NCBI GenBank assembly: GCA_965219535.1
Contig: CBDCNV010000002.1
Coordinates: 750,001 to 782,000, forward strand
Length of the DNA stretch: 32,000 nucleotides
Direction: 5' to 3'
From: Opitutales bacterium
GTDB lineage: Bacteria > Verrucomicrobiota > Verrucomicrobiia > Opitutales > PNEW01
Part shown: positions 13,792 to 32,000 of the stretch, in pieces
How positions within the stretch are numbered: position 1 is the stretch's first letter
How the letters are laid out: each line of letters starts with the position of its first letter
Notes under the pieces: generated by a model
Told to the model about the DNA's origin: nothing
The model's database searches: none
The model's input: only the letters and a program-made list of their open reading frames with translations
Made by a program: the position numbers and the translations under genes

Positions 13792-16230
13792 TCAATTCCC
13801 ATTCGAGTCGAGGAGGGTCTCGATGGAATTATTAACGGCATGGACTTTGACTCCATTAATCTGAGAGGGGGGTATATTCAGATCAAGCGTTATAGAAATG
13901 GGTGATATAACGGTTAATACCGGGCCAACGGGAGATTCAGCGATAAACTCGTAATTGTAGATACCTTCAGCTGTGGGATTGCTGAAATTGAAATCGACAA
14001 GCCTGGGGTTTGTCCAACCGCTGGTCGTGACCATTCCGTCCGCGGTAATGCTTACCGACTCCGGTGCTGCTGAATCAATCGAGAGTGCTATCCCATTCAC
14101 TTCCAAAATTTTTGTAAATAACGGAAGGCTAATATTTTCACCGAAGGCATTCTCAAAGACAGCTTGTATGTTTGCAGCCTGAATATTTGTCGAATCCGAT
14201 TTGAAATTGTCCTGGGAAATGATGGAGCTGAAACCTGCGTTATCGCCTGTTGACGCCACGATCACATTCGACTCATTACTTTGAAGAAGGTCACCTCCAG
14301 CGATTATCAGTGCTCCATCATATTGAATTAACGAAGATCCCTCTCCCAGTATCAAGTGAGGGACGGCATCACCTGCTGCATCGATATCACCGATAATCGC
14401 TCGCACCAAAACCGGGACTCCAGATGCTTTTACTCCTATATCTCCCGTCGCATTATTGAAGCGTGTATTCGCGCAGAGTATACCGCCGAAACCGGTCGAA
14501 TTAATGATCTCTAATAATGCCACGTCGGCCACCGCATCATAAATTTCCCCTTCTGGGAACAAGTCCTGGTTAAATGCATTGATAGAGCCCACCGTGAAGA
14601 TGCTTAGAAAAGAATTTTCGTCCGCACCCTCCACGCGTATTGTTGGTTGGCCTTTTACATAATTTACCGTTGGCTGATTATACTTTGCCGGCGGCGCTGC
14701 TGCCTCAAATGTGTCCGGATCGAGAGTGACCGTTACGGTTGCGTTACCGGAGAATTCTACCTGAACGATGTCATCATTTAAATCAAGGAAAGAGACACGT
14801 GTAATCTCTGAACCATCTGTGCTCAAGGTAACACTTTGTCCGGTTAACAAGACCTGGTTATAAATGTTTCCGTTGGCGTGGGTGATGTTTTCTCCGACGA
14901 CATCACCGAATCCCTCTTGCACGAGATCAGCGGGGACAGTGCTGAGACTAAACACATAGACCGATCCAGAATCCGTGTCATTGTCATCATCTAATGGCGC
15001 TCCTACCAACACGGTATCTTCGCTGACCTCTGCCGTAAAACCGAACCAATCAAGTGCCACCCCATCGCTTGCCGTTAGTTTTGTAACCTCGCCCCAGTTA
15101 TCAGCTCCGCCAGTATTGCGTTTAAAAACGTAAGCGGAGCCGGAATCCTTACCACTGACATCGTCGAAGGTTGTACTGATAACGACGGTATCCCCGTCAA
15201 TATCGACCCATCCGCCTAACCAGTCATCGGGGTCCCCATCACTTGCGGTCAGTTTTGCGGCTTCACCCCAGTTATCGGGACCGCCCACGTTTCGTTCAAA
15301 GATATAAGCGGCACCGGAATCCACGCCTAGTGCATCGTTCAAGTTTGCACCGATCACAACGGTATCTCCACTGATCTCAACATGATTGCCAAATACATCA
15401 TCAGCTGCGCTGTCACTAGCGGTCAGTTTGTTAACTTCCCCCCAGTTGTCATCACCCCCTGCGTCGCGTTCAAAAATATAAGCCGAACCGGAATTGTGAC
15501 CATCGTCATCATCCCACACCGCACCGGCGACAACAGTGTCTCCGCTGATAGCAACTTGAAATGCAAATTTGTCACCTTCTGCCCCATCGGCTGATTTCAG
15601 TTTCGTCACCTCACCCCAGTTGTCAGGACCGCCGGCATTGCGTTCAAAAATATAGGCAGACCCGGAATCGATACCGTTGTCATCGTCGAAATGCGCACCA
15701 ATGGCAACGGTGTCTCCGCTGATCGCAACCGACCAGCCGAACCAATCACCTGCTGCGCCGTCGCTTGCTAGCAGCTTGGCAACCTGCGACCACGCATTGT
15801 TTCCATCGGTGTTACGTTCAAAGATATAAGCGGAACCGGAATCGATTCCGTTGTCGTCATCTAAATGCGCACCGACCACTAAAGTATCCGCATCGATCGC
15901 CGCAAATATTCCAAAATTATCTCCCAACGCGCCATCGTCAGCAATTAGTTTGGCCACCTCATTCCAATTGTGATTACTGCTCTGGGCGCGCTCATAGACA
16001 TAGACCGCGCCGGAATTATTACCGCTGTCATTTACTAGTGGTGCACCCACAATCAGGGTATCGCTGCTTATCCCTACCGCTCGTCCGAATAGTTCCTCCC
16101 TCGCACCATCACCAGCTAATACTTTGCTCAGCTCATTAGTGATGATTGTTTCAGCGACCAATCCTCCTGAGCCGATCGCCAATAGAGCAAATAAGAGAAG
16201 GTAAAGTAAACACTGCGTGCGCGCATTCAT
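13792..16230 (-). CDS. secreted protein: signal peptide + seven FG-GAP-type repeats (beta-propeller) + shared core domain + unique C-terminal extension
   Basis: The ORF is 812 aa with an N-terminal signal peptide (MNARTQCLLYLLLFALLAIGSGG). There are seven ~57-aa repeats of the form D-G-x-x-G-D-x-F-G...ISGDTVVIGA...DSGSAYIFER...NW.EV.KL. The shared core domain spans aa ~446-680 (GENITHANGNIYNQVLLTG...QDNFKSD), followed by a ~130-aa unique tail. Confidence 0.9.
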   Translation of the reverse strand: MNARTQCLLYLLLFALLAIGSGGLVAETIITNELSKVLAGDGAREELFGRAVGISSDTLIVGAPLVNDSGNNSGAVYVYERAQSSNHNWNEVAKLIADDGALGDNFGIFAAIDADTLVVGAHLDDDNGIDSGSAYIFERNTDGNNAWSQVAKLLASDGAAGDWFGWSVAISGDTVAIGAHFDDDNGIDSGSAYIFERNAGGPDNWGEVTKLKSADGAEGDKFAFQVAISGDTVVAGAVWDDDDGHNSGSAYIFERDAGGDDNWGEVNKLTASDSAADDVFGNHVEISGDTVVIGANLNDALGVDSGAAYIFERNVGGPDNWGEAAKLTASDGDPDDWLGGWVDIDGDTVVISTTFDDVSGKDSGSAYVFKRNTGGADNWGEVTKLTASDGVALDWFGFTAEVSEDTVLVGAPLDDDNDTDSGSVYVFSLSTVPADLVQEGFGDVVGENITHANGNIYNQVLLTGQSVTLSTDGSEITRVSFLDLNDDIVQVEFSGNATVTVTLDPDTFEAAAPPAKYNQPTVNYVKGQPTIRVEGADENSFLSIFTVGSINAFNQDLFPEGEIYDAVADVALLEIINSTGFGGILCANTRFNNATGDIGVKASGVPVLVRAIIGDIDAAGDAVPHLILGEGSSLIQYDGALIIAGGDLLQSNESNVIVASTGDNAGFSSIISQDNFKSDSTNIQAANIQAVFENAFGENISLPLFTKILEVNGIALSIDSAAPESVSITADGMVTTSGWTNPRLVDFNFSNPTAEGIYNYEFIAESPVGPVLTVISPISITLDLNIPPSQINGVKVHAVNNSIETLLDSNGN
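14947..16119 (-). repeat. seven tandem coding repeats (FG-GAP-like blades) inside 13792-16230
   Basis: Seven consecutive units were counted in the translation (aa ~38-428). The DNA-level similarity between units is visible (for example ggaatcgat(a/t)ccgttgtc(a/g)tc recurs). Confidence 0.8.
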
Positions 16231-16357
16231 GGTCTTTTATGCCTAGAGGAGCTCACACTGGGGACAGTTAATTCGTAATGCATGTTCCTATTACAAGAAG
16301 TATAACCTTTTGAACTGGACACTATCATAACCCAAAGACACGGTAAACTTAATTCCT

Positions 16358-18949
16358 ATGAAGTGCCGTAACGCCATTCTTTTATGTGTTGCCGCTATCC
16401 TGATTTTATCGGGATGCAATGAAAAAGAAGAGCTGACAACTGAAGAGGCGATTACCTGGGGAGAGCTTCAGCAACTGCCAAATTCCTCGGGACTAAGTGG
16501 CGCTTTTTCTGGTCCCAGCAAGGGTGCATTGATTGTCGCGGGAGGAGCAAACTTCATTCAGGAACCGGGGAGAGGAGAGGGAATAGTAAACTGGAATGAT
16601 ACGCTCAATGTGTTAGAGGGCGACCCAGACGCAGCGTGGATAAGTGATTTCGCACTCAAAAAACCGTTGGCTTATGGTGCATCTGTAAGCACAGGTAAAA
16701 GTTTAATCCTGATTGGAGGGAAAAATGCCGAGGGACATCAAAGTGATGTCATTCAACTCACATGGGATCGGGCATCGAAGATGGTCGCCAAGGAGGAGCT
16801 GCCGTCTTTACCGCAGGCAATCGCCTATTCCGGTGCGGCAATAAAAGGTTCGAAATTGTATGTCGTGGGGGGGCAGGGCGGCGATGAGGAGTCAGAGCTA
16901 TCAAACATATTCTTGTCACTCGACTTGAATAACCTGGAAGCTGGTTGGAAAGAGCTGACAACTTGGGATGGGCCCGCTCGGAGAAAAGCGATTACCGTAG
17001 AGCAAAGTATCGGTAATATCACCTATATTTATATCATAGGCGGTGAAGGCTTGTATAAAGATGCGGAAGGTAAAACTCACACTGTGCTGTATACTGACGG
17101 CTATCGTTATTCCCTCCAATATAAGGAATGGAAGCGCATAGCCGATTGCCCCCAACCGATAACGGCGACCCCGGCGATCAAGTACGGACAATCCCATATT
17201 CTCGTCTTTGGTGGAGATAGGGGACAGAAATTAAGCGACGGATCAGAAGACGAGGAGCCGGGATACACGCGCGATCTTCTTGTTTATCATACGATCACTG
17301 ATACCTGGCTAAAAAAGGGGGAGGTCCCGTTGCCGGTGAATGCGACCGAAGCGATTGCCTATAAGGGCGGCATAGTCCTTGTCAGTGGAGAGACCGGTGC
17401 GAGCAAAACGACACCGAAGGTTCAAATCATGTATCATGACAAAGACGCACAGGCATCATTTGGATTAATTAACTACACGTTTCTCATTCTCTATATGGTG
17501 GTCATGGTTTACATCGGTATCTATTTCTCCAGGCGGGAAAAAGGAACTGACGATTACTTTCTCGCAGGACGACGCATACCCTGGTGGGCTGCGGGAATCA
17601 GCGTACTGGGGACGGGTCTCAGCGCATTAACTTATATCTCGCATCCGGCAATGGCTTATTCCATGGACTGGTTTGCCTTCCCGGCAAAGATAGGAATTAT
17701 AATCGCCCCGATCATCACGATTTACTGTTTTTTGCCCTTCTATAGAAGGCTCAATGTTACGACGGCCTATGAGTACCTGGAAAAACGTTTTAACCTTCCG
17801 GTTCGTTTATATGGCAGTGCACAGTTTATCGTTTTTCAATTGGTGCGCATCAGCCTCATTCTCTATTTACCCGGGATTGTATTATCCACGATCACGGGAA
17901 TAAACATCTATGTCTGTGTATTGTCGATGGGGCTGCTCAGCACCTTTTACACCGTGATGGGGGGTATAGAAGCCGTAGTGTGGTCAGACGTTATTCAAGT
18001 TATAGTTTTCTTTGCCGGCATCATTCTCGCAATCATTGTTGTTACTTTTCATGTCGATGGCGGGGTGATGGGTGTCATTGAAATTGGTATGGCCGATGAT
18101 AAATATCGCATGCTGTATCTGGACTGGGATATCACGGCGCCCGTTCTATGGGTGGTCGTGGTGGGGAATTCTTTTAATACCTTAGTGCAATATACCGCGG
18201 ACCAGGGGATGATCCAGCGTTACCTTACAACGAAGGATGAAAAATCAGCGGCAAAAGGCTTGTGGTTAAACGTAGCCGTTACTATTCCCGTGGGGTTGCT
18301 TTTTTTCATCATGGGTGCCGCACTCTATGCCTATTATAAATCGCATCCGGCTGAACTCAGTTTAGGGATGCAAAATGATGCCATTTATCCTCTCTTCACG
18401 GCGCAAAGGATACCCATAGGTCTCGCCGGATTTGTCATAGCGGCCATCTTTTCTGCCGCGATGTCGAGTTTGGACAGCAGCATGAATTCGATAGCGACCG
18501 CTTTTGTCACCGACTTTTACCGAAGATTCAAACCCGATAAGTCTGAACACCAATATTTAAAATTAGCCCGGTGGGTTACATTGGTAATCGGTATTTTTGG
18601 AACCGCTTTTGCTCTCGTCCTTGTGACTTTCGACATTAAGTCGGTGACTTTGTTTAATGTCGCGATCATTGGATTATTAAGCAGTGGACTCGCCGCATTG
18701 TTTGCACTCGGTGTCTTTACCCGTCGCGCCAATGGGATCGGTGTTTTAATCGGAGCAATTACCAGTGCGATCGCCCTTTATTTTATTAAGTTCTACACAC
18801 CGATTAATTTTTATTTCTATGCCTGTCCCGGTTTCATCATCTGTTTTGCCGTGGGGTATCTAGTGAGTTTAGTTATACCGGTAAAAGATAAATCTCTTGA
18901 AGGGCTTACGCTTTATTCTGTCTTAGGAAGAGATGACGAGGGGAAGTGA
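16358..18949 (+). CDS. fusion protein: lipoprotein signal + NanM-like Kelch beta-propeller + sodium:solute symporter (SSS) family transporter, copy 1
   Basis: The ORF is 863 aa. It begins MKCRNAILLCVAAILILSGC, which contains a lipobox. Residues ~30-360 resemble N-acetylneuraminate epimerase NanM/YjhT (GLSGAFSGPSKGALIVAGGANF..., LVSGETGASKTTPKV). Residues ~365-863 form a polytopic SSS domain (DDYFLAGRRIPWW, TAYEYLEKRF, GGIEAVVWSDVIQ, QRYLTTKDEK, AAIFSAAMSSLDS). Confidence 0.9.
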   Translation: MKCRNAILLCVAAILILSGCNEKEELTTEEAITWGELQQLPNSSGLSGAFSGPSKGALIVAGGANFIQEPGRGEGIVNWNDTLNVLEGDPDAAWISDFALKKPLAYGASVSTGKSLILIGGKNAEGHQSDVIQLTWDRASKMVAKEELPSLPQAIAYSGAAIKGSKLYVVGGQGGDEESELSNIFLSLDLNNLEAGWKELTTWDGPARRKAITVEQSIGNITYIYIIGGEGLYKDAEGKTHTVLYTDGYRYSLQYKEWKRIADCPQPITATPAIKYGQSHILVFGGDRGQKLSDGSEDEEPGYTRDLLVYHTITDTWLKKGEVPLPVNATEAIAYKGGIVLVSGETGASKTTPKVQIMYHDKDAQASFGLINYTFLILYMVVMVYIGIYFSRREKGTDDYFLAGRRIPWWAAGISVLGTGLSALTYISHPAMAYSMDWFAFPAKIGIIIAPIITIYCFLPFYRRLNVTTAYEYLEKRFNLPVRLYGSAQFIVFQLVRISLILYLPGIVLSTITGINIYVCVLSMGLLSTFYTVMGGIEAVVWSDVIQVIVFFAGIILAIIVVTFHVDGGVMGVIEIGMADDKYRMLYLDWDITAPVLWVVVVGNSFNTLVQYTADQGMIQRYLTTKDEKSAAKGLWLNVAVTIPVGLLFFIMGAALYAYYKSHPAELSLGMQNDAIYPLFTAQRIPIGLAGFVIAAIFSAAMSSLDSSMNSIATAFVTDFYRRFKPDKSEHQYLKLARWVTLVIGIFGTAFALVLVTFDIKSVTLFNVAIIGLLSSGLAALFALGVFTRRANGIGVLIGAITSAIALYFIKFYTPINFYFYACPGFIICFAVGYLVSLVIPVKDKSLEGLTLYSVLGRDDEGK

Positions 18950-19224: not shown

Positions 19225-19265
19225 ATTACGATTATATCAGAAACGTAGCCTCTGACTTGCTATGT

Positions 19266-20454
19266 CTACTGCACAAATGCGCTAATGGCATTTACGATGG
19301 CGAGATAGCGGGGTTCCTCGGCGTCGTTGGCGAGCATACTGGGTTCATAGACGCTGAAATTGTTATGGTCTCCGCTCCGCTCGACGGTGATCTCATAATT
19401 GAATCCATCAGCGACCGTCGATAAAAGATCACCATTCGAGGGTATGGTGAATACATCATTCAATTCGAGTTCTTGCCAAAGCTGGTCTAAATCTTCCGCG
19501 GCGATCTCAAATTCTGATCGTTCGCCGGTAAACCCTTCCACGAATACATAAATTATTGATCCGTCAATTTCCCTAAGGGTTGTCAATTCTGAGATACCCG
19601 CAATGCCTCCGGTTTTATGCATAACAATACTTCCAATGATTATGTTCTTTTCGACCGCGACGGTTATTGTCTCTCCATTCCCATTTACGAAAGTGGTGTC
19701 AATCCCCTGCGAGGGTTGATCCGATCCATCTGACTTTACATTGTCTTGGGTTATGAGTGTCTCAAATCCGGGTGTCGTCGATCCATCCGGCGCTACGACT
19801 ATCGAAACTCCGTTTGACTGTTGAAGATCACCGCCTGTGATTCGCAATCCGGAATTGTTTGCGGGGACCGTGAAGGAACCATCTCCAAATAAAAGGTACG
19901 GAACGGCATCCCCACTGGCATCGATGTCGCCCAGGGTTAAGCGAACCGTGATCGGCACGCCGGTCGCATCGACCCCCACCTTACCCGTGTTCCCGCTAAA
20001 GACGGTATTCGATAATTGCATTCCACCCATTCCCGTGGAGTTGGTGACTTCCACCAGGCTCACATCCGCCTTGGCATCATAGACCTGCCCATCGGGAAAC
20101 AATGCCTGGTTCACGGCGTTTATTGATCCAACAGTGAAGATACTGAAAAAGGTGCTGGAGTCCGCTCCCTCGATTACCACGCTGGGCTTGCCCGTGACGT
20201 AGAGAACTTCCTGGTTATAGCGAGGTGGAAGGGCAGGGGGTGTGAAAGTGATTGGATCCAGAGTTACAGTAAAGGTACCGGATCCCGAGAACTCTACCTG
20301 GACAATATCTTCGTCTTCGTCCATGAACGATACGCGGGTGATCTGATTCTGTTTTGCCTGGAGCCTAATACTTTCACCGGTGAGCAAAACCTGGTCGAAT
20401 ATGTTTCCATTCGGATGAATTATATTCTCTCCGACAACATTACCTGAGCTGGAG
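19266..20454 (-). pseudogene. C-terminal fragment (core domain + unique tail) of a core-domain family gene split by the IS element
   Basis: The frame is open from the IS boundary (…SSSGNVVGENIIHPNGNIFDQVLLTGESIRLQAK…) to the stop at 19266. The 'M' start in the ORF track is a TTG inside the conserved LLTGE motif, so it is not a real start. The core spans ~19728-20432, followed by a ~150-aa unique tail. Confidence 0.8.
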
Positions 20455-20514
20455 TGACCCCCAAAAATCGTATCATTTACAGAGAGAGGTTATCGGGATA
20501 AACAGATAACCTCA

Positions 20515-20808
20515 ATGAAAAGAAAAAGATACACAACAGAACAGATTATAACAATATTGCGGCAAGCCGATACCGGTAAAACGGTACAGGAAATCTGCCG
20601 TGGAAACAACCTGAGCGAACAGACTTTCTATCGCTGGCGTAAAAAATATGGCAATTTAGAACTTGCCGATGCGAAGCGATTTAAAGAGCTGGAAAAAGAA
20701 TTCACGAGCGCAAGCGAGAAGGCCTGACATACCGAGCTGAAGAAGCTGCTCGCAGATCAAATGCTCAAGAATCAGGTAATGGAGGAAACGCTGTCAAAAA
20801 AATGGTGA
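20515..20808 (+). pseudogene. IS3-family transposase OrfA (HTH + leucine-zipper) with an in-frame TGA at 20725-20727
   Basis: The frame reads MKRKRYTTEQIITILRQADTGKTVQEICRGNNLSEQTFYRWRKKYGNLELADAKRFKELEKEFTSASEKA*HTELKKLLADQMLKNQVMEETLSKKW*. Both parts are in the same frame. Confidence 0.75.
20796..20802 (+). promoter_or_regulatory. A AAA AAA -1 programmed ribosomal frameshift heptamer (OrfA->OrfAB)
   Basis: The sequence tcA AAA AAA tgg tga is in the OrfA frame. A -1 slip enters the OrfB frame exactly at 20802 (atg gtg agc ...). This is the classic IS3-family arrangement. Confidence 0.75.
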
Positions 20809-21767
20809 GCCCAAAGCAGAAGAAACGAGTAGTAAAAGCTGCGGCTGAGAAAGGGTTGTGCTCGTTGCGGAGGGCTTGTGCTTATCTCAGCCTGAGTTGG
20901 TCAACGTTCAGTTACCGGCCCAAACAGGCCAGTGAGAAAGCTCAGCGGTTGGTCGAGCGGATTGTGAGCTTGTCCTGGAAACATCCCCGCTACGGTTACC
21001 GGCGCATCCGTGCCTTGCTGGTAAAGGAAGGCTGGACAACAAGCAGGAAGTTTGTCCAGGCGGTACGACGTTCAGAAGGGCTGCAGGTAAAGCCCCCGAA
21101 AAAGGGCAGACACCGTCAAGGAGTCTCTACGGGGTCACCTACTAAAGCAAAGGGTCGCAATCACGTTTGGTCCTGGGACTTTGTCCATGATCGTACAGAC
21201 AACGGCGGTCCATTAAAGATGATGACTCTAATCGATGTACCGAGGAGCTGAAAGCGACGACACTCAAGCGAAGCGAAGACATATACGCGTAAATGCCTGG
21301 ATATCCGGGTCGCTCGTCAACTCACCTCAACCGATGTCCTCTCTGTGCTTAGCGAGGCCATTGAAGAGGAGGGACCTCCCAGCTATATCCGTAGTGACAA
21401 CGGCAGTGAGTTCATTGCTCATCAAGTGCAGCAGTGGTTGTCCGGTAATAACATAAAGGCGATCTATATCGATCCGGGCAGTCCCTGGCAAAACGGTTTC
21501 ATCGAGTCGTTTCACAACCGCTTACGCGATGAGTGTTTGAACCGTGAAGTGTTGCTCAGCGTGGCTGAAGCGCAAGTGGTAATCGAACAATGGCGTCAGA
21601 CCTATAACCATGAACATCCCCACAGTCGTTTAGGCTTCAAAAGCCCACAAGAGTTTGTCAGATTCCTTTCCGATCTTGGCCGCGTTCGGGCTACGCCCTC
21701 ACTTCGCCAAGATCTCTCATATACATCAATCCTAAAACCATTAACACCCGGTAACTCTCTCACTTAA
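20802..21767 (+). pseudogene. IS3-family transposase OrfB (DDE integrase-like) with an in-frame TGA at 21249-21251
   Basis: ORFs 20802-21251 and 21345-21767 are in the same frame (both start coordinates are multiples of 3). Reading through gives ...LKMMTLIDVPRS*KRRHSSEAKTYTRKCLDIRVARQLTSTDVLSVLSEAIEEEGPPSYIRSDNGSEF.... Confidence 0.75.
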
Positions 21768-21788
21768 ATTGGTACGAAAAACGGGGTC

Positions 21789-23002
21789 CGATCAGAGCCT
21801 TCGATGATAAGATCCTGGCCCTCTCCGGTGAATTGGATCGAAAGCATAGGTCGTCTATCCGCGGTGACACTTTCTTTACTGTCGAATTGAGTCGACGATC
21901 CCGTAATCGAATCATCGACGATCAGAATCCAGCCAAAATTCTGGTCAGGGTTATCCAACCAGGCTTGTGTGTCGGCAATCATCGCAAGTGAACTCCAGGT
22001 AATAAAACCCGTCTCTGATAAAGTTTGGGTAGCGGATGGGGTGGTTACAAAATCACCTCCCGGTGTAGTCCAATTATCACTCTCGAAAAAGCTAAAATTC
22101 CAAGTGGCGTCTCCAATTGTCGGGGGACCACCCTGACCGGCACCCACAGAGTTTCCCTCGCCCCATTCCTGGTTAAGACTGTGTAAGAAAGTGTCTACTG
22201 AGATGTCATTCGTCGGCGCGCCACGTTTATTGGCAAACAAAGTAAGCGACACGGATTCAATGACTCCGTTGCTGGGAATGCTGCCGGCCAGGTCAAATTG
22301 AATTAACGCTCGGCGAATCCCCGAACCCATCTGGCCCTGCGTTCTACCGGAAAAAAGATCAATGCCATGGGCATTACTGTTATCATTTTCCGAATAAATG
22401 GAGTTATCTTTAATAGATTCAAGGATAACGGTATTAATGGGTGGTCCTATAAGATAGGAGAAACCGAGATCATCAAGGGCGAAGAGACCTACAACATTCA
22501 AAACTGTGATTTCCCTGATCCCGCTCGTATAATCTAAATCCGATGTATCGTTATTATCACCACTGAAGGCGACAAAACTTTGTAAAGGGGCAATGACGTC
22601 GGGGCCTATATTTACGGGCAGACCATCGACGACACCATTGGGATGCAATTCTATGCCGGTTTTGTCCCGCACCTCTATCCTTCCAGCGCCCGTTGTTTCC
22701 GCAGCCGTGAATTGGAGTAAGTTAACCCCGCGTTCAAAAATTATTCTACCTTCCTGCCCCGGCGCGAGAATCAGGGCCCGGGTTCCCGAACTATATATAT
22801 TAGGATTGCTCGTCGCAGTCGCGGTAAATCCAATGACCCGGATACTATTGGGTGATTCGCCGAGGATAAAATCTCCCGAGCCCTCATCATTCTCAAAATC
22901 GAAAAAGTTATCGAGGTTTTGGGGCTGGGCGAGAACCAGGACAGGTAAAGCTATTAAGAGTGTTGTGAACGATAAAAGTTTCTTACTGCTCATGGGCTGC
23001 AT
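21789..23002 (-). pseudogene. N-terminal fragment (signal peptide + N-module + DNRLRE-like domain) of the IS-split core-domain family gene
   Basis: The signal peptide is MQPMSSKKLLSFTTLLIALPVLVLAQP. The N-module is homologous to the N-termini of 26032-28239 and 28518-30728 (NFFDFENDEGSGDFILGESPNSIRVIGFT...GTRALILAPGQEGRIIFE). The following segment (RRALIQFDLAGSIP...LNQEWGEG...ATWN...NFGWILIV...RRPMLSIQF) looks like a DNRLRE-type domain. The last 8 codons of the track ORF (to 21764) are read from IS sequence. Confidence 0.8.
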
Positions 23003-23192
23003 TCATTAGAACGTATAATCGTTATTAAATGAATTTATTTATAATATGTTAGTGGTCAAGGCCTTCGATATGACTTAGAATCATATAGTTACGTAATACT
23101 GACTGATAATTCCTATTCCCGTTCCGTCCAAGTGAGAAAAGGTTTTAAACTGGACAGTGTTTAGTTCCAAAGGCACCGTCTATGCAAAACTT

Positions 23193-25775
23193 ATGAAACG
23201 TCTATTTATCCTTTCGTTAACATTATTCGGTGTCTTATTAATTACGGGTTGCAGTGAGACTGAAGCTCCGCAATCGGAAGCGATCACCTGGGAAGAGCTT
23301 CCCGAACTTCCCAATACGGTTGGCTTGGGTGGCGCGTTTTCCGGGGTGAGCAATGGAGCATTGATCGTCGCCGGTGGGGCGAATTTTCCCGATGAACCCG
23401 AGTGGGAGGGTGGGACAAAAGTCTGGTATGATGATATTTATATTTTAACGCCTGAAAATAAAGAAAAGGAGTGGTTGACCGGATTTAAACTTAATCAACC
23501 GCTTGCTTACGGGGCCTCGGTCAGCAGTGGGGACAGCCTGATCCTGATCGGCGGCAGCGATGCCGAACGCTATCATGACGGGGTCACAAAACTCACCTGG
23601 AATCCTGAAGGCGAGATAATTGAGCAAAGCTCTCTTCCATCCTTACCGCAACCGCTATGCTTTGGTGATGCAGCTGTGATTGAAGATACGCTATACGTAG
23701 CAGGCGGCCAGGTCGGTGAGGATAGCGAGAGTCTGATAAATATATTCTGGTCTCTCGACCTGAGCATTAAAGATGCAGAATGGATTGTATTAGAACCCTG
23801 GGATGGACCGGCCCGAAGGAAGGCGCTTGTAACAGCTCAGAATGAGGGAGACAGGACATATTTATATATTATCGGAGGCGAAGATCTGATTAACGATGGG
23901 GACGGGAAAGTAAAATTCAATCCATTGATTGATGGTTACCGTTACTCACTAAGGTATAAGCAATGGGAACGTATTGCTGATGCACCGCATCCAATAACGT
24001 CGGCATCGGGGATATCCTATGGTCAATCGCACATTCTGGTATTTGGTGGAGCAACGGGTGAATATCTCGGTCAGATTCTGCGGGATGATCACCCTGGATT
24101 TTCCACCGACCTGCTCGTCTATCATACAATTACCGACACCTGGCTAATCAAAGATAAAATACCTTTAAGTGTGGTCACCTCAAATGCCGTGTCCTGGGGA
24201 GTAGGGATCGCGCTTGTAAGTGGTGAGATTCGACCCAGTAGAAGAACACCCAAGGTCCAACTAATGATGCATGACACCGGCGCGCGCGCGACCTTTGGCA
24301 TAATAAATTACCTTTTTCTCATTTCATACATGATAGGGTTGGTAATCATGGGCCTCTATTTTTCCAAACGGGAGAAGGGAACAGATGATTACTTTCTCGC
24401 CGGACGCCGCATACCCTGGTGGGCTTCAGGGCTAAGCGTCATGGGGACCGGACTTAGCGCGCTCACATACATTTCCCTGCCGGCACTAGTTTATGGCACA
24501 GACTGGTTTTCTTATCCCGGAGTTGTCGGACTCTTGCTCGTCCCGATAATTACGGTCTACTTTTATCTGCCCTTCTTCAGAAGGCTCAACATCGTCACCG
24601 CTTTTGAATACCTTGAAAGACGATTTAATCTCCCGGTTCGCTTATACGGCAGTGCACAGTTTATCATCTTTCAATTGGTACGGATCAGTATCGTATTGTA
24701 TTTGCCCGCCATCGTTCTCTCCACGATCACTGGAATAAACATTTACGTATGCATACTATCGATGGGACTGCTGAGTACTTTTTATACGGTGCTCGGTGGG
24801 ATAGAAGCGGTGGTCTGGACGGATGTTTTTCAAGTCATTATTTTCTTTGGTGGAATCATCGTGGCCCTGATTGTTATTCCCTTTCATATCGAAGGCGGTG
24901 TTATGGAGATGATTAAAACGGGAATGGCCGACGATAAATTCCGCATTTTTTACCTGGAATGGGATATTACGGCGACGACCTTTTGGGTAGTCGTTCTTGG
25001 TGGTGGATTTGGTACCTTAATCCAGTACACCTCTGATCAAGCGATGATCCAAAGGTATCTTACAACAAAGGATGAAAAGGCGGCGGCTAAAGGGTTATGG
25101 CTAAATGTAGCGATGACTATTCCTACCGGATTATTATTTTACTGTATGGGGACCGCGCTTTATACCTTTTACCATTCCCACCCTTCAAGCGTTAACCTGG
25201 GAATGCAGAATGATGCGATTTTCCCTTTATTCATATCACAGAAAATTCCCGTGGGTCTTGCGGGGCTTTTGATTGCCGCTATTTTTTCCGCCGCGATGTC
25301 GAGTCTGGACAGCGGGATGAACTCGATGGCCACGGCCTTTGTCACCGATTTCTACCGACGATTAAAACCGAACGCTTCGGAGCATAGCTGTTTAAGGCTC
25401 GCTCGCTTGGCCACTTTGATTATAGGTGTATTTGCCACTGCGGTTGCTTTACTCATGGTAACCTTTGACATCAAGTCCGCATCTCTCTTTTTCACTTCAA
25501 TCCTTGGCCTATTCAGCAGTGGGTTAGCGGGACTATTTGCGCTTGGTATTTTCACAAAACGGTCAAAAGGGATCGGGGCTTTTATAGGAGCGATCACGAG
25601 CGCAATTGTCCTGTATTGTATAAAATACTATACTGATATTAACTTTTATCTCTATGCTTTTCTTGGCTTCGTGGTCTGTTTCATCGTGGGTTACTTCGCG
25701 AGTCTTATTATCCCGGAGAAAGAGAAATCGATGGAGGGGCTCACGCTCTATACTTCACTTCCCAGGCAAGACTGA
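23193..25775 (+). CDS. fusion protein: lipoprotein signal + NanM-like Kelch beta-propeller + sodium:solute symporter, copy 2
   Basis: It is collinear with 16358-18949 over its full length. The start was chosen at ATG 23193, which gives MKRLFILSLTLFGVLLITGC with a lipobox; the ORF track uses an upstream GTG at 23157. The same SSS motifs are present (DDYFLAGRRIPWW, TAFEYLERRF, QRYLTTKDEK, AAIFSAAMSSLDS). Confidence 0.9.
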   Translation: MKRLFILSLTLFGVLLITGCSETEAPQSEAITWEELPELPNTVGLGGAFSGVSNGALIVAGGANFPDEPEWEGGTKVWYDDIYILTPENKEKEWLTGFKLNQPLAYGASVSSGDSLILIGGSDAERYHDGVTKLTWNPEGEIIEQSSLPSLPQPLCFGDAAVIEDTLYVAGGQVGEDSESLINIFWSLDLSIKDAEWIVLEPWDGPARRKALVTAQNEGDRTYLYIIGGEDLINDGDGKVKFNPLIDGYRYSLRYKQWERIADAPHPITSASGISYGQSHILVFGGATGEYLGQILRDDHPGFSTDLLVYHTITDTWLIKDKIPLSVVTSNAVSWGVGIALVSGEIRPSRRTPKVQLMMHDTGARATFGIINYLFLISYMIGLVIMGLYFSKREKGTDDYFLAGRRIPWWASGLSVMGTGLSALTYISLPALVYGTDWFSYPGVVGLLLVPIITVYFYLPFFRRLNIVTAFEYLERRFNLPVRLYGSAQFIIFQLVRISIVLYLPAIVLSTITGINIYVCILSMGLLSTFYTVLGGIEAVVWTDVFQVIIFFGGIIVALIVIPFHIEGGVMEMIKTGMADDKFRIFYLEWDITATTFWVVVLGGGFGTLIQYTSDQAMIQRYLTTKDEKAAAKGLWLNVAMTIPTGLLFYCMGTALYTFYHSHPSSVNLGMQNDAIFPLFISQKIPVGLAGLLIAAIFSAAMSSLDSGMNSMATAFVTDFYRRLKPNASEHSCLRLARLATLIIGVFATAVALLMVTFDIKSASLFFTSILGLFSSGLAGLFALGIFTKRSKGIGAFIGAITSAIVLYCIKYYTDINFYLYAFLGFVVCFIVGYFASLIIPEKEKSMEGLTLYTSLPRQD

Positions 25776-25880: not shown

Positions 25881-25984
25881 GGTGGACCGCGCTGCCTGTC
25901 CGTCATAGCTTTGGCGACGACTGATCCCTAGCGCGTTTGAGAATGTCGTAAGAAAAGAAGCGTGCTGGGACAGCCCGCTCCACC
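25881..25984. repeat. family A repeat, long left arm + short right arm
   Basis: The sequence is ggtggaccgcgctgcctgtccgtcatagctttggcgacgactgatccctagcgcgtt ... gaagcgtgctgggacagcccgctccacc. It lies between two convergent genes. Confidence 0.85.
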
Positions 25985-26031
25985 TTAACACTTAAAACCT
26001 AAAACTTAACACCTAACACTTCTCAAAGAGA

Positions 26032-28239
26032 TCACTCGATAGTGATCTCTTCGAGAACAACCTCAATCGCGTCGCCATCTTCGTTAGCGAAGGTAGCGTC
26101 AATGCTCAGGGTCGGCTGAGGGGTGTTGTCGGACTTGAAGTTGTTTTGCGTGATCAGGGTGTCAAACCCGGTCGTTGTCGATCCGCTCTCCGCGACGACG
26201 ACTGCGGCGCCGTTAGTCTGCAAGAGGTCACCACCAGTGATCCGCAACCCGGGGTTACCGGCGGCAACAGTGAAGGAACCTTCACCGAAGAGAATGTGAG
26301 GTACTGCATCGCCACTGGCATCGATATCGCCAATCGTTAAGCGTACCCCGATCGGTACCCCCCGCGCGTCGATACCGGTTTTGCCGGTACTTCCACTGAA
26401 CGCGGTGTTCGACAGTTGTATGCCGCCCATGCCCGTGGAATTTACAATTTCAACTAACGTAACGTCTGCCTGTGCATCATAGACTTGACCTTCGGGGAAG
26501 AGGGCCTGGTTAAACGCGTTGATCCTACCCACGGTGAAGATGCTGAAGAAGGTATTGGCGTCCGCTCCATCGATCACGACGCTCGGTTTGCCCGTCACGT
26601 ACTCAACGGCCTGGTTGTAGCGTGGAGGGATGGCCGGGGGCAGGAAGGTGGCCGGATCGAGGGTTACGGTAAAGGTCCCATTACCTGAAAATTCTACCTG
26701 CACGATGTCCTCATTTTCATCCATGAAGGAGACGCGGGTGATCTGTCCCGGTTTGGCCTGGAGTTGGACGGACTCTCCGGTGAGTAAAATCTGGTCGAAG
26801 ACATTACCGTTGGCATGCTGAATATTTTCCCCCGCGATATCGCCCGAGCCGTCGAGGACGAGGGGAATAGCCGGTGCCGCTACCGTGATCACGGCGGTAT
26901 CGCTGTCAGCACTGCCTCCAGCGTTGGTAATTTGTGCCCAGTAGTTCGTGCTGGTTGTGAGGGCACCGGTAGTTAAAGTGTTGCTTGTGGCGCCCGCGAC
27001 GGGAGCTGCGGTATCACCGCTGTTGCCGGTATACCACTGATAGGTGAGGTCGTCACCGCTGGCAGCAACAGTGAGGACTACCGCGGTGCCGGATGGGACA
27101 TCCTGGCTCGCGGGTTGGGTGGTGATTGCTGGACCTGTTGCCGGAGGTGGTCCGCCGCCGCCATCGAAACCTGGAGTCCCAATCGGGGAAAATCCGAAAT
27201 TGTCGATCGCTGTCGAGCTAAACAAAGGATTAATAAGAACATCATCGAGTAAAAGAATTTTGCCAATACCACCAGGAGCTCCTAGTTCGTTGGCATCAAA
27301 AGTGAAGTGTGGAAGTCCTGACCCCGCTAAGATATTCGACCCCAGGTTATTTTCTGAGAAGAGTAAATTATCTTCAGTATCATATACCTCAATAGTACCA
27401 TCGCCTCCACCGCTGCTTGTGCGCACGACAGTTGCGGCAAAAAATTGCACTCGGGCTGCGGGGGTTTCAAAAGTGATCGTTCCAGTATCACCATTCACAA
27501 CCCTCCAGTGACTACGCAATGAGCGAAATTGAAATTGTAAGTCATCTTCAGCTTCCTGGGATATATCCCCACCTGAAAAAGTGGCGGTAAAAGGCGAAGT
27601 CCCCACGGTAACATCCTCACTGGTTGGTTGGAATTCTGAAAAAAAGGTGAATACCGTGTTATTGGATGGGCCATCAATGAGGGTATAGCCCACATCATCG
27701 ATCGCTAATTTTCCGGTAACATTGAAAAATTTAATTTCAGTCATGCCGTCAAAGTAGTTGAGATCCTCTAAATCCTGGAAAAACCCACTGAAGGCGACTA
27801 AACTTTGCAGGGGTGGATTGGACTCAGGATTGATGCTGTTAGGCAGGCCCGTAAAACTGCCCTGCTGAGATAAGGTGAATATTTCTTGTCCATTAGTGGA
27901 TGTCCCGCGTTCTCGAACCTCGTACTTACCCCCGCCCGTGCTTTCAGCAGCGTAGAATTCGATTTCAGCAATGCCTTTTCTCGTGAAGATTTTTCCCTCC
28001 TGGCCGGGCCCCAGGGTTATGGCTTTCGTTCCCGAGTGTAAGAGACTCGGGTCCTCTAACGTTTCTACGGTAAACCCGATAAATTGAATTTGATTGGGCG
28101 GATCACCGAGTAAAAAGTCTACCGTTCCTTCGGCATCTTCAAAATCTAAAAAATTTTCCTGGTCCTGCGGAAGCGCTCGAAGAAGAAGAGGAAATAAAAG
28201 TGAGATTAGCGATACAGATACGAGATTTTTTATGCGCAT
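26032..28239 (-). CDS. secreted modular protein: signal peptide + N-terminal beta-sandwich-like modules + Ig-like domain + shared core domain (tandem copy 1)
   Basis: The ORF is 735 aa with an AGGGGGG Shine-Dalgarno sequence 5 nt upstream. The signal peptide is MRIKNLVSVSLISLLFPLLLRALP. An Ig-like segment is present (PAITTQPASQDVPSGTAVVLTVAASGDDLTYQWY...AVITV). The core spans aa ~470-704, followed by the acidic tail ...LEEITIE. Confidence 0.9.
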   Translation of the reverse strand: MRIKNLVSVSLISLLFPLLLRALPQDQENFLDFEDAEGTVDFLLGDPPNQIQFIGFTVETLEDPSLLHSGTKAITLGPGQEGKIFTRKGIAEIEFYAAESTGGGKYEVRERGTSTNGQEIFTLSQQGSFTGLPNSINPESNPPLQSLVAFSGFFQDLEDLNYFDGMTEIKFFNVTGKLAIDDVGYTLIDGPSNNTVFTFFSEFQPTSEDVTVGTSPFTATFSGGDISQEAEDDLQFQFRSLRSHWRVVNGDTGTITFETPAARVQFFAATVVRTSSGGGDGTIEVYDTEDNLLFSENNLGSNILAGSGLPHFTFDANELGAPGGIGKILLLDDVLINPLFSSTAIDNFGFSPIGTPGFDGGGGPPPATGPAITTQPASQDVPSGTAVVLTVAASGDDLTYQWYTGNSGDTAAPVAGATSNTLTTGALTTSTNYWAQITNAGGSADSDTAVITVAAPAIPLVLDGSGDIAGENIQHANGNVFDQILLTGESVQLQAKPGQITRVSFMDENEDIVQVEFSGNGTFTVTLDPATFLPPAIPPRYNQAVEYVTGKPSVVIDGADANTFFSIFTVGRINAFNQALFPEGQVYDAQADVTLVEIVNSTGMGGIQLSNTAFSGSTGKTGIDARGVPIGVRLTIGDIDASGDAVPHILFGEGSFTVAAGNPGLRITGGDLLQTNGAAVVVAESGSTTTGFDTLITQNNFKSDNTPQPTLSIDATFANEDGDAIEVVLEEITIE

Positions 28240-28384: not shown

Positions 28385-28484
28385 GTGACGGCGGTTCCCT
28401 AACGTTGGACAGTGTCATAAGAAAAGAAGCGTGCTGGGGACCAACCTTCGCCAAGGCTATGGCTGGCAGGCAGCCCGCTCCACC
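28385..28484. repeat. family A repeat, degenerate left arm + long right arm
   Basis: The sequence is ...gacggcggttccctaacgtt ... gaagcgtgctggggaccaaccttcgccaaggctatggctggcaggcagcccgctccacc. It is positionally equivalent to the copy at 25881 within the tandem duplication. Confidence 0.8.
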
Positions 28485-28517
28485 TTAAAACTTAAAACCT
28501 AACACTTCTCAAAGAGA

Positions 28518-30728
28518 TCACTCGATAGTGATCTCTTCGGTCGTAACCTCGATCGCATCGCCGTCTTCATTGGCGAAGGTGGCATCGATACTTAATGTCG
28601 GCTGAGGGGTGTTGTCGGACTTGAAATTGTTCTGTGTGATCAGGGTCTCAAACCCGGTCGTTGTCGATCCGCTCTCCGCAACCACGACTGCGGCACCGTT
28701 CGTCTGCAGGAGGTCGCCTCCGGTGATCCGCAGGCCGGGGTTACCGGCGGCAACAGTGAAGGAACCTTCACCGAAGAGAATGTGAGGTACTGCATCGCCA
28801 TCAGCATCGATATCACCGATCGTTAAGCGTACCGCGATCGGTACTCCGCGCGCATCGAAGCCGACATTGCCCGTGCTTCCACTGAACACGGCATTCGATA
28901 ACTGTACCCCTCCCAGTCCCGTGGAGTTGACTACTTCCACGAGGGCCACATCAGCCTGGGCGTCATAGACCTGTCCTTCGGGGAAGAGGGCCTGGTTAAA
29001 GGCGTTGATCGTGCCTACGGTGAAGATGCTGAAGAAGGTATTAGCGTCCGCTCCATCGATCACGACGCTCGGTTTGCCCGTCACGTACTCAACGGCCTGG
29101 TTGTAGCGTGGAGGGATGGCCGGGGGCAGGAAGGTGGCCGGATCGAGGGTTACGGTAAAGGTCCCATTACCTGAAAATTCAACCTGCACGATGTCCTCGG
29201 TTTCATCCATAAAGGAGACGCGAGTAATCTGTCCCGGTTTGGCCTGGAGTTGGACGGACTCTCCGGTGAGTAAAATCTGGTCGAAGACATTACCGTTGGC
29301 ATGCTGAATGTTTTCGCCCGCGATATCGCCCGAGCCGTCGAGGACGAGGGGAACGGCAGGAGCCGCTACGGTGATGACCGCGGTGTCGCTATCGGCGGTC
29401 CCGCCGGCGTTAGTAATCTGTACCCAGAAACTAGTGCTCGCGGTGAGCGCTCCCGTGTCTAAGGTCCCGGCAGTCGCACCGGCGACGGGGGCAGCGGTGT
29501 CACCGCTGTTGCCGATAAACCACTGGTAGGTAAGATCATCACCACTGGCTGCAACGGACAAGCTCGCCGATGCACCGGATGCTACTTCCTGGCTTGCGGG
29601 TTGAGTAGTGATAGAGGGACCTGTTGCTGGAGGTGGTCCGCCGCCGCCTTCAAAACCTGGGGTTCCAATTGGGGAAAATCCGAAATCGTCGATACTCGTT
29701 GAGCTGAATGATGGATTCACATGTTCTTTATCGCTTAAAGTAATTTTGCCAATACCTCCCACAGCTCCCAATTCACTCGCAAGAAATGTATAATGTGGAA
29801 CCAGTGATCCCTGCCGTATATTGGTCGCCAGGTCTTCTTCCGTGGCGAGTAAATTATCTTCAGTATCAAATACCTGAATAGTACCGTCGGATTCGCCTAA
29901 TGCTTGACCGACGATTGTTGAGGCAAAAAATTGTACCCGTGCTGCCGGTGTTTCGAAGGTGATCGTTCCAGTATCGCCATTCTGAACTCTCCAGTGACCA
30001 GGAAATGAGCGGAATTGAAAACCGAGCAAATCTTCCGCTTCTATGGATAAATCTGCGCCAGAAAAGGTGGCGGTAAATGGCGATGTTCCAATGGTAAAAT
30101 CATCACCCGAAGGTTGGAGTGTAGCAAAGTAAGTAAAGACCGTGTTGTTCCTTGGTCCATCGATGAGGGTATAACCCACATCGTCGATGGCTAATTTACC
30201 CGTTACATTCAAGATATTAATTTGATGTATACCGTCAAAGTAGTTGAGATCCTCTAAATCCAGAAAACTGCCACTGAAGGCAACGATACTTTGCAGCGGA
30301 GGATTGGATTCAGGGTTGATGCTGTTTGGAAAGCCTGAAAAATTACCCTGCTGAGTTATAAGAAAATCTTCTCCAGAACCAGAAGCAGTTCCCTCAATTC
30401 TTCGAGCCTCGATCCTAGCGGTACCCGTGGTATCAGCCAAGTAGAATTCGATTTCAGCAATCCCTTTTCTCGTGAAGATCCTTCCCTCCTGGCCAGGCGC
30501 CAGGGTTATAGCTTTCGTACCCGAGTGCAAGAGACTCGGGTCCTCTAACGTTTCTACGGTAAACCCAATAAATTGAATATCATTAGGCGGATCACCGAGT
30601 AAAATGTCTACCGAACCTTCGGCATCTTCAAAATCTAAAAAAACTTCCTGGTCCTGTGGAAGCGCTAGGAGAAGAAGTGGAAAAAAAAGTGAAAGTAGCG
30701 ATACGGATACGAGATTTTTTATGCGCAT
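28518..30728 (-). CDS. secreted modular protein, tandem copy 2 (same architecture as 26032-28239)
   Basis: The ORF is 736 aa and collinear with copy 1. The core domain differs at 14 of 235 residues by my count, and the tail is ...TEEITIE. Confidence 0.9.
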   Translation of the reverse strand: MRIKNLVSVSLLSLFFPLLLLALPQDQEVFLDFEDAEGSVDILLGDPPNDIQFIGFTVETLEDPSLLHSGTKAITLAPGQEGRIFTRKGIAEIEFYLADTTGTARIEARRIEGTASGSGEDFLITQQGNFSGFPNSINPESNPPLQSIVAFSGSFLDLEDLNYFDGIHQINILNVTGKLAIDDVGYTLIDGPRNNTVFTYFATLQPSGDDFTIGTSPFTATFSGADLSIEAEDLLGFQFRSFPGHWRVQNGDTGTITFETPAARVQFFASTIVGQALGESDGTIQVFDTEDNLLATEEDLATNIRQGSLVPHYTFLASELGAVGGIGKITLSDKEHVNPSFSSTSIDDFGFSPIGTPGFEGGGGPPPATGPSITTQPASQEVASGASASLSVAASGDDLTYQWFIGNSGDTAAPVAGATAGTLDTGALTASTSFWVQITNAGGTADSDTAVITVAAPAVPLVLDGSGDIAGENIQHANGNVFDQILLTGESVQLQAKPGQITRVSFMDETEDIVQVEFSGNGTFTVTLDPATFLPPAIPPRYNQAVEYVTGKPSVVIDGADANTFFSIFTVGTINAFNQALFPEGQVYDAQADVALVEVVNSTGLGGVQLSNAVFSGSTGNVGFDARGVPIAVRLTIGDIDADGDAVPHILFGEGSFTVAAGNPGLRITGGDLLQTNGAAVVVAESGSTTTGFETLITQNNFKSDNTPQPTLSIDATFANEDGDAIEVTTEEITIE

Positions 30729-31020
30729 TTTGACCCATTAATTTGAATTAAACCCTGAATTTCTGTTAATGCATACGACTGCTGTTTTTAGACAAGTAAC
30801 GGTAAAAAATGCAGGTTTCAACAGATAATTAAGATTTCTGTTATTTTTTTGGAATCGGCCTTCGATTTAGCATACGGAGGTGAAGAGATGAATTATTCGA
30901 ACCGGTACGAGGGCCATATTCGCTTGTCGTCCATTGCCTGCGGTCACATCAGCATCGATATACGATTTACGAGTTACGATGTGCGATGTAAGAAGGATGG
31001 ACAACGACAGTCCGATCCAT

Positions 31021-31136: not shown

Positions 31137-31215
31137 AACAATTACAAGATTGAGGGTGATTTAATATAACCGTTAGGCACAATCCGCAATCCGCATTCCC
31201 AAATCCGCAATTGAA

Positions 31216-32000
31216 TCACTCTATCGTCAACTCTTCGGTCGTCACAGTTATCGCATCCCCATCTTCATTGGCAAAAGACGCGACAATACTCTGAGTCGGC
31301 TGAGGGGTTTCATCGGACTTGAAGTTATTCTGAGAGATCAAGGTCTCAAACCCTGGGGTTGTCGATCCACTCTCCGCGACCACAACCGCGGCATCATTGG
31401 CCTGCGCCAGGTCTCCACCAGTGATTCGCAAACCGGGGTTTCCCGCCGGTACCGTAAAGGATCCTGTGCCAAACAGTATATGTGGTACTGCATCGCCACT
31501 GGCATCGATGTCACCTACCGTTAGCCGTACTGCGATAGGGGTACCTCGCGCATCCACGCCTATCTTGCCGGTGCTTCCACTGAAGACGGTGTTCGACAGC
31601 TGCATCCCACCCATTCCCGTGGAGTTGATCACTTCCACCAACGAGACGTCAGCCTGGGCGTCATAGACTTGGCCTTCGGGGAACAGTGCCTGGTTCACGG
31701 CGTTGATCTTTCCTACTGTGAAGATGCTGAAGAAGGTATTGGCGTCCGCTCCTTCGATGACCACACTCGGCTTTCCCGTCACGTACTCCACGGCCTGGTT
31801 GTAGCGAGGGGGCAGAGCCGGGGGCAGGAAGGTGGCCGGGTCGAGGGTGACGGTAAAAGTCCCAGCGCCTGAGAACTCTACCTGCACAATGTCCTCGTTT
31901 TCATCCATAAAGGAAACGCGGGTGATCTGATTCGGTTTCGCCTGGAGTTGGACGAACTCACCGGTTAATAAGATCTGGTCGAAGACGTTCCCGTTGGGAT
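31216..32000 (-). CDS. core-domain family protein, C-terminal part only (gene continues beyond the right edge)
   Basis: The frame stays open upstream of the track's Met to the window end (…NGNVFDQILLTGEFVQLQAKPNQITRVSFMDENEDIVQVEFSG…). It contains the core domain and the tail ...TEELTIE. Confidence 0.85.
   Translation of the reverse strand, partial: PNGNVFDQILLTGEFVQLQAKPNQITRVSFMDENEDIVQVEFSGAGTFTVTLDPATFLPPALPPRYNQAVEYVTGKPSVVIEGADANTFFSIFTVGKINAVNQALFPEGQVYDAQADVSLVEVINSTGMGGMQLSNTVFSGSTGKIGVDARGTPIAVRLTVGDIDASGDAVPHILFGTGSFTVPAGNPGLRITGGDLAQANDAAVVVAESGSTTPGFETLISQNNFKSDETPQPTQSIVASFANEDGDAITVTTEELTIE

Follow-up and report, generated by a model that had tools for sequence, protein, structure and literature searches.

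Five genes on the minus strand of a 32,000-nucleotide stretch of an Opitutales bacterium (contig CBDCNV010000002.1, positions 750,001 to 782,000; the whole stretch is called the window here) share a domain of about 270 amino acids (aa), which we refer to as the core, and we found that this core stands for a domain family that is real, large, and without annotation and whose expansion in one lineage is remarkable. The core stays nearly constant while the modules in front of it vary, and the reading that we tentatively favor is that it forms a constant base by which exported proteins dock to a common partner, with the variable modules binding ligands. A broader proposal, which is possible but doubtful, is that the core is the new-fold attachment or assembly handle of an undescribed surface-display system specific to the Planctomycetes-Verrucomicrobia-Chlamydiae (PVC) bacteria, one that in a single Opitutales lineage would carry at least 60 interchangeable lectin-like surface proteins per genome (about 3% of the genome) and would also be used by enzymes of Opitutaceae and by fibrous proteins of Planctomycetes.

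The five genes, labeled A to E, and their parts are as follows.

13792-16230, minus strand: gene A, 812 aa, with a signal peptide, a 7-blade FG-GAP propeller, the core, and a 107-aa extension
14116-14907, minus strand: core of gene A, aa 442-705 as placed by the core hidden Markov model (HMM)
19266-20449, minus strand: C-terminal part of gene B, with the core at about 19638-20447 and a 123-aa extension at 19269-19637
21795-23002, minus strand: N-terminal part of gene B, with a signal peptide, one predicted jelly-roll N-terminal module (N-module), and a DNRLRE domain
26032-28239, minus strand: gene C, 735 aa, with a signal peptide, two homologous modules predicted to be jelly rolls, Ig_7, and the core
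26035-26844, minus strand: core of gene C, aa 466-735, which ends at the last residue and is the sequence used for the core model
28518-30728, minus strand: gene D, 736 aa, with the architecture of gene C and the core at 28521-29330
31216-32000, minus strand: gene E, of which the C-terminal 260 aa are in view; these are the core minus its first 10 or so residues, and the remainder lies past the end of the window

Extent, conservation, and predicted fold of the core

All five open reading frames (ORFs) that an earlier note on this DNA had reported from the letters alone are present, and the block that it described as common to them is unmistakable, as the five copies align unambiguously at 57-94% identity with more than 100 invariant columns, which is far beyond chance. 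Relative to the copy in gene C, the other four cores are 94, 87, 73, and 57% identical, and the core of gene A represents a sub-type near stand-alone proteins of 302 aa. The front modules differ in the way that had been claimed: gene A carries seven FG-GAP_2 stretches that make up a seven-repeat propeller (PF14312 in Pfam, E = 5.4e-122), gene B carries a DNRLRE domain (NF033679 in NCBIfam, 48.2 bits versus a cutoff of 34, E = 1.2e-12), and both of the roughly 735-aa genes C and D carry Ig_7 (PF19081 in Pfam) together with a second N-module that is homologous to the first. The architecture of gene C is the dominant one in the family.

The core is longer than the 235 or so residues first assigned to it. 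In genes A and B it is complete before the extensions, and in genes C, D, and E it extends up to the final residue, where the acidic ...EE(I/L)TIE tails noticed earlier are indeed seen, not as an appendage but as the last beta-strand of the domain itself: the sequence '...EEITIE' corresponds in the alignment to the C-terminal strand that reads '...DVTTQ(I/V)V...' in remote homologues, and the strand is modeled with a predicted local distance difference test score (pLDDT) of about 90. Because the acidic tail is the domain's last beta-strand, the core measures about 270 aa and not 235. Two copies do have extra extensions, at lengths of 107 and 123 aa rather than the 130-150 aa once proposed. When the 123-aa extension of gene B was scanned alone, it matched Emfourin (PF20242), a family of protein inhibitors of M4 metalloproteases, at 27.7 bits versus a gathering score of 27, and this match drops below the threshold when the whole protein is scanned.

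That the core could not be placed in any named family, as the earlier note had put it, was upheld by sequence and profile searches against Pfam, NCBIfam, and PDB and by Foldseek against PDB. Pfam-A gave no match over the core even at E <= 1, NCBIfam gave none, and a profile search of PDB with the core gave none at E <= 10. A weak match to a cupredoxin/nitrite reductase came up in a phmmer search of PDB (best E = 0.088), vanished in the profile search, and is put down to chance. Scanning 17 distant members with Pfam returned partner domains only and left the core region blank, and the names that members bear at NCBI follow their partner domains ('immunoglobulin domain-containing protein', 'serine hydrolase') or read 'hypothetical protein'. 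A tblastn search of a plasmid collection yielded no match, and our literature search found the motif strings in no paper and nothing relevant on Opitutales, symbionts, paralogs, or surface proteins.

From an alignment of 51 sequences at 56-87% identity, AlphaFold2 predicts the core of gene C as an all-beta domain with about 21 mostly short strands (pLDDT 93.4, predicted template modeling score 0.91). Structure prediction followed by a Foldseek search, the check that had been suggested for the core, gave this confident model and no PDB match: against PDB nothing was found at E <= 0.001 (best E = 1.9, TM <= 0.15), and against BFVD nothing was found at the same threshold (best E = 0.075, TM below 0.2). 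The full-length model of gene C served as a positive control and gave 151 PDB matches for the N-terminal part. Judged by this model, the core is likely to be a new fold. The core shows no internal repeat or fiber-like signature; an internal duplication was ruled out by an hhalign comparison of its two halves (probability 1.2%), and a descent of the core from a divergent N-terminal jelly roll was ruled out in the same manner (hhalign probability below 1%).

Across 87 representatives with a median identity of 45% to the window core, the residues conserved in at least 85% (core numbering) are H10, N14, D17, Q18, R37, S39, D42, D46, Q49, E51, Y76, Q78, Y82, N112, Y122, D123, D127, N146, D173, Q209, N211, and S238. 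No tryptophan is conserved across the family, and the core of gene C contains none at all.

The stop codons of core genes are followed, immediately on the 3' side, by short heptamer arrays (25981-26021, 28484-28507, 30956-30980, and 31180-31211), which read, on the coding strand, GTGTTAG/GTTTTAA or CGGATTG; in the first 70 nucleotides (nt) downstream of 74 paralogs, the self-identity at period 7 is 0.38, versus 0.23-0.28 for other periods. An Rfam scan of the window gave no match, and a 'tRNA-???' with a two-base anticodon that ARAGORN placed inside the coding sequence of gene E (31331-31417, minus strand) is almost certainly spurious.

Family size and distribution

The earlier note had spoken of a five-member family amplified within the window. 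A scan of one genome per GTDB species gave 138 confirmed stretches, and all 68 loci that were kept belong to two Opitutales metagenome-assembled genomes (MAGs); together they hold 107 complete and 13 partial or disrupted cores. Of the complete ones, OY829953.1 (4.49 Mb) accounts for no fewer than 62 and CBDANS01 for no fewer than 45. About 10% of the copies are disrupted, gene B among them. The core stands at the exact C terminus in 120 of 125 ORFs of these two MAGs, and 74 ORFs, of 725-765 aa, are built like genes C and D. When 1.84 billion representative sequences were searched with a profile, 788 clusters (50% identity) came up at E <= 1e-3 and 591 at E <= 1e-30, and the N-terminal 465 aa of gene C are represented by 480 clusters at 90% identity; most of the matches listed there are proteins of about 735-760 aa, and they are spread over numerous MAG contigs 1-5 Mb long. 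Given the 788 metagenomic clusters and a genome that by itself holds at least 62 copies, what had been taken for a local five-copy amplification is a small sample of a far larger family. The window stems from a genome related to OY829953.1 and is 84-94% identical to the latter at the nucleotide level, with synteny kept. For a bacterium with a 4.5-Mb genome, a paralog family of at least 62 copies ranks among the larger ones that we know, and an expansion of this order suggests that the family is central to the way in which these organisms interact with their surroundings or host.

A more distant sub-family occurs in Opitutaceae and Opitutus, including the cultured Opitutus terrae (member P0465). 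Another group (P0185, P0189, P0190, P0211, and others) begins with 'ALR(I/V)EALEQRQLLA', which fits the motif RRLxxExLExRxLLA, described in PMC8567305, citing Studholme 2004, as an export signal of Planctomycete cell-surface proteins. In these Planctomycete-type members the core immediately follows the motif.

Selection on a constant core and variable front

Identity was compared among 61 full-length members, namely genes C and D and 59 database homologues, and the mean pairwise value is 0.90 for the core, 0.77 for the Ig domain, 0.63 for N-module 1, and 0.50 for N-module 2. Conservation of the core is near-uniform, at 0.86-0.96 in almost every segment of 15 residues, and within the N-modules the patches aa 106-135, 226-255, and 301-315 are hypervariable.

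Nei-Gojobori estimates from 400 random pairs of the 74 paralogs gave, for the core, a proportion of synonymous differences (pS) of 0.55, a synonymous divergence (dS) of about 1.0, and a nonsynonymous divergence (dN) of 0.06, which corresponds to a dN/dS of about 0.06, and for the N region saturated synonymous sites with a dN of 0.49. Since dS is close to 1 while dN/dS is about 0.06, the paralogs are old and their core has been held by strong purifying selection. The suspicion that the copies might be pseudogenes, which the earlier note had itself raised, is answered by the same ratio, and, to judge from these substitution patterns, the genes do not appear to be decaying as a class. Recent gene conversion as the main cause of core conservation is ruled out by the values of pS and dS; gene conversion may nevertheless have had a minor share, as the saturated N region has a higher dS than the core.

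Modular behavior of the core

The core is C-terminal in 100 of 137 representatives, while in 26 it comes directly after the signal (N-terminal) and in 11 it is internal. Two proteins, P0156 and P0191, contain two core copies, and stand-alone proteins of about 300 aa that consist of a signal peptide and the core (P0087, P0092, P0096, and P0163) are kept in at least seven MAGs. The catalytic partners of the core include Beta-lactamase (PF00144, of the serine hydrolase type) and Glyco_hydro_cc/GH39, and its other partners include TonB_C, Golvesin_C, CARDB with LRR, RCC1, NHL and DUF5122 propellers, and arrays of He_PIG and Ig domains.

The core thus behaves as an accessory module, of a binding, anchoring, or assembly type, and not as a terminal sorting tag. 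Because it also accompanies true catalytic domains, we regard it as a noncatalytic accessory module. The idea of a functional cassette, put forward in the earlier note, therefore stands as far as a conserved core with swapped modules is concerned, while its option of an enzymatic unit is disfavored by these catalytic partners. The polarity that it had proposed, a functional unit combined with targeting modules, is probably reversed, as it is the N-terminal modules that diversify, namely jelly rolls resembling lectins or carbohydrate-binding modules (CBMs), a propeller, and a DNRLRE domain, which fits ligand recognition.

N-modules and export signals

The N-terminal 355 aa of gene C were modeled at a pLDDT of about 90, and Foldseek matched its N-modules to MAM, reelin-repeat, tandem CBM22, F-lectin, and Eph ligand-binding domains. 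These are jelly-roll matches (2v5y, 3a7q, 4xup, 3cqo, and others, E from 1.6e-7 to 2e-4). In genes C and D, N-module 2 is homologous to N-module 1 (hhalign probability 97.9%, E = 5.8e-13), which amounts to a tandem duplication. In Pfam and NCBIfam, aa 25-355 of both genes have no match, and hence no named CBM or lectin family. According to the model, the N-modules of genes C and D are tandem jelly rolls of the galactose-binding-domain-like kind, followed by an Ig spacer.

Signal peptides had been claimed for all copies with an N terminus in view, and all of these N termini do show a signal-peptide-like pattern; among the 74 paralogs one has a lipobox, the pI is about 4, and 50 lack cysteine. 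The same 74 paralogs of about 740 aa have a conserved predicted mature start, 'ALPQD(Q/L)E.F.DFE', despite their variable N-module 1 (28150-28170 and 30640-30660 in the window, minus strand). The idea that the paralogs have a promoter or invertible element in common was considered and dropped, as the 250 nt in front of them are not conserved across the family and consensus scans for promoters and terminators stayed at background.

Neither the core nor the whole proteins matched Pfam or NCBIfam models of the type IX secretion system (T9SS), PEP-CTERM, LPXTG, autotransporters, or S-layer homology (SLH) domains, in agreement with the first impression that PEP-CTERM, LPXTG, and T9SS signals are absent, and known sorting signals and anchors were rejected as an explanation on these grounds. 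The C termini are an acidic beta-strand (...EEITIE) or soluble extensions instead of PEP-CTERM or LPXTG sequences. For an autotransporter barrel there is no Pfam match, the C-terminal residue is Glu, and most strands are 3-7 residues long; for SLH repeats there is likewise no Pfam match, and the likeness is one of role only.

Insertion element in gene B

20450-21794, plus strand: IS3-type insertion element of 1345 bp, which interrupts gene B within the linker, one or two codons ahead of the core

The split of gene B had been ascribed to an insertion sequence (IS), and it is a true insertion: the 1345-bp element is flanked by a 4-bp target duplication, GAGC (20446-20449 and 21795-21798), and in the syntenic locus of OY829953.1 (L020) the site is empty and the counterpart of gene B is intact, with an open frame of 793 codons (792 aa from the first Met). 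The element shows the features of the IS3 family, namely a transposase with a helix-turn-helix and a DDE (rve) domain (HTH_21, rve, and rve_3 in Pfam), terminal inverted repeats, and a short target duplication. Its ends are imperfect inverted repeats starting with TG, TGGAGTGACCCC and TGATCGGACCCC. The transposase frame is broken within the rve domain, which may mean that the copy is defective or that the assembly contains an indel, and about 13 of the related loci contain transposase ORFs akin to this one.

Genomic context

16358-18949, plus strand: fusion of a NanM-like Kelch propeller with a sodium:solute symporter (SSF; PF24996, PF00474), divergent from gene A
23157-25775, plus strand: second fusion of a NanM-like Kelch propeller with an SSF symporter (by Pfam), divergent from gene B and tail-to-tail with gene C

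NanM is an N-acetylneuraminate epimerase. Sixteen such fusions were found within two genes of core genes, in 14 of the 68 related loci, and both fusions in the window start with a lipobox-like signal (...ILSGC and ...LITGC). Other recurrent neighbors are fusions of SBP_bac_5 with a permease (12), PhyH dioxygenases (about 21), FG-GAP proteins (10), and sulfatases (6), and transposases and sugar-acid enzymes also recur near core genes. A linkage to transporters, as a model of the polysaccharide utilization locus (PUL) type would have it, was not significant: transporters make up 9.1% of immediate neighbors versus 5.1% at a distance of three or more genes (odds ratio 1.9, p = 0.087). This context suggests a nutrient-scavenging genome rather than a dedicated operon.

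Upstream in the window lie a BNR_2 sialidase-like protein (4216-5463, minus strand) and a copper amine oxidase (5497-7698, minus strand), and further on there are an M20 peptidase, an acetoacetate decarboxylase-like protein, glyoxalase-fold proteins, and a xylose-isomerase-like TIM barrel. Taken with the NanM-SSF fusions, these genes hint that sialic-acid-like sugars are scavenged. Between a glyoxalase-fold gene and gene A, a region of about 1.75 kb (12039-13791) has no ORF above 103 aa and a lower GC content, about 41%; the part from about 12567 to 13730 is without counterpart in the syntenic locus L015.

Possible roles of the core

The genes specify acidic, modular proteins of a very large Opitutales paralog family, the group of about 740 aa being mostly cysteine-free. 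Our observations lead us to suggest that these proteins are Sec-exported and would pass the inner membrane and come to lie at the cell surface. There the core may serve as a noncatalytic base that docks to a component of the cell's own envelope or to other core copies, and the front modules, whether tandem jelly rolls with an Ig spacer, an FG-GAP propeller, or DNRLRE, would recognize ligands, most likely glycans. Several considerations weigh against such a docking base. The attachment role is one that we infer, and surface exposure is assumed, as Sec-exported proteins would stay periplasmic without translocation across the outer membrane. Stand-alone cores have no passenger to anchor, so that a pure anchor suits them less well than a structural subunit, a binder, or an enzyme would. 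Moreover, polar residues (H, D, E, R, Y, N, and Q) are conserved family-wide at about 22 positions, many of them outside the modeled strands, and such a pattern would also suit a catalytic site or a site for an external ligand. The model of the core, finally, depends on its alignment, since a low-diversity alignment of paralogs gives the same region a pLDDT of only about 30, and the fold comparison covered PDB and BFVD by Foldseek.

The core might instead face outward, as a new CBM, lectin, or adhesin head that binds one common external target, for example an abundant polysaccharide or a host surface, with the other modules adding specificities or space. We hold this to be rather unlikely, even though the core behaves much like a CBM in that it is found at either end or internally, is sometimes doubled, and occurs on a glycoside hydrolase, on serine hydrolases, or alone. 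Many of its conserved polar and Tyr residues, often outside the modeled strands, would suit a binder, as would the many sulfatases, transporters, and sugar-acid enzymes among the neighbors, and in the Planctomycete-type members the core heads a long low-complexity polypeptide, where it would form the distal tip if this polypeptide is a fiber with a C-terminal anchor, as is assumed. The lack of any family-conserved Trp, and of any Trp in the core of gene C, speaks against it, however, and no CBM or lectin fold was matched by the core, though Foldseek readily gave such matches for the N-modules. It is also hard to see why at least 60 paralogs per genome should keep a binder of a single ligand about 90% identical while their lectin-like modules diversify. 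A self-associating assembly domain, by which paralogs co-polymerize into a surface layer or fiber with the stand-alone core as its undecorated major subunit, appears unlikely to us. Near-uniform conservation over 270 aa despite a dS of about 1 is what would be expected if most surfaces make contacts, and the conserved proteins made of signal peptide and core are readily accommodated; flagellins and pilins follow a comparable logic, in which a conserved part serves assembly and a variable part attached to it is exposed. Yet oligomerization of the core is putative, the domain has no internal repeat or fiber-like signature, and in distant members it is found on single enzymes, for which a polymer seems unnecessary.

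Still less can be said for the core as an enzyme of new fold whose N-terminal lectin-like modules target different substrates, which we consider improbable: it is the smaller partner beside established catalytic domains, it resembles no enzyme in sequence or fold in the searches run, and it would be unusual for a nearly identical catalytic unit to be kept in dozens of paralogs. This is so even with H10, D42, D46, E51, R37, Y76, Y82, and D123 among the residues at least 85% conserved, with secreted stand-alone versions, and with genes that sit among catabolic genes. A secretion or sorting domain for an outer-membrane translocon, analogous to the C-terminal domain (CTD) of the T9SS, would account for the exact C-terminal position in 120 of 125 Opitutales MAG copies, for the many Sec-dependent cargo proteins with diverse passengers, and for the fact that no other sorting signal was found. 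We nevertheless judge it highly improbable, as the domain is elsewhere N-terminal, internal, duplicated, or alone, is some three times as large as a T9SS CTD, and matches no T9SS, PEP-CTERM, LPXTG, or autotransporter model.

Whichever role applies, how surface proteins are retained and organized in Verrucomicrobia and Planctomycetes is poorly understood, and we know of no equivalent of the T9SS CTD or of SLH domains described for them. The core is a concrete candidate, being one domain on hundreds of exported proteins, about 90% identical among dozens of old paralogs, and present in the cultivable Opitutus terrae. Even if the attachment idea should prove wrong, the family merits a database entry, with 788 clusters whose members are named by their partners only, and a confident core model that has no PDB neighbor makes a good target for structure determination.

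Comparison with known systems

The family resembles T9SS cargo and SLH-anchored proteins in kind and has none of their defining features. Like T9SS cargo of Bacteroidota, it comprises many Sec-exported modular proteins in which one beta-rich C-terminal domain is combined with diverse passengers (Ig-like domains, propellers, and enzymes). Its core, however, has about 270 aa versus roughly 80-100 for a T9SS CTD, matches no CTD model, is not bound to the C terminus, can occur alone or doubled, and belongs to PVC bacteria. SLH anchors offer the nearer working model, that of a noncatalytic module at either terminus of surface proteins and secreted enzymes that retains them on the cell; the core differs from them in having no sequence similarity or Pfam match and in being, as predicted, a single all-beta unit of 270 aa instead of three short repeats, and attachment would be the putative part of the likeness.

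The N-modules of genes C and D and the single one of gene B match by Foldseek the jelly-roll folds of CBMs and lectins (tandem CBM22, F-lectin, and MAM), although they belong to no CBM or lectin sequence family and the core is unrelated to them (hhalign below 1%). With the Planctomycete proteins that carry RRLxxExLExRxLLA there is a direct overlap, as a subset of the family has this motif followed by the core, while the window proteins have ordinary signal peptides and a C-terminal core. Unlike the surface glycan-binding proteins of Bacteroides PULs, the window proteins have no lipoprotein anchor and their adjacency to transporters is not significant, but they are like them in being exported multi-beta-sandwich proteins amid transporters, sulfatases, and sugar-catabolic genes.

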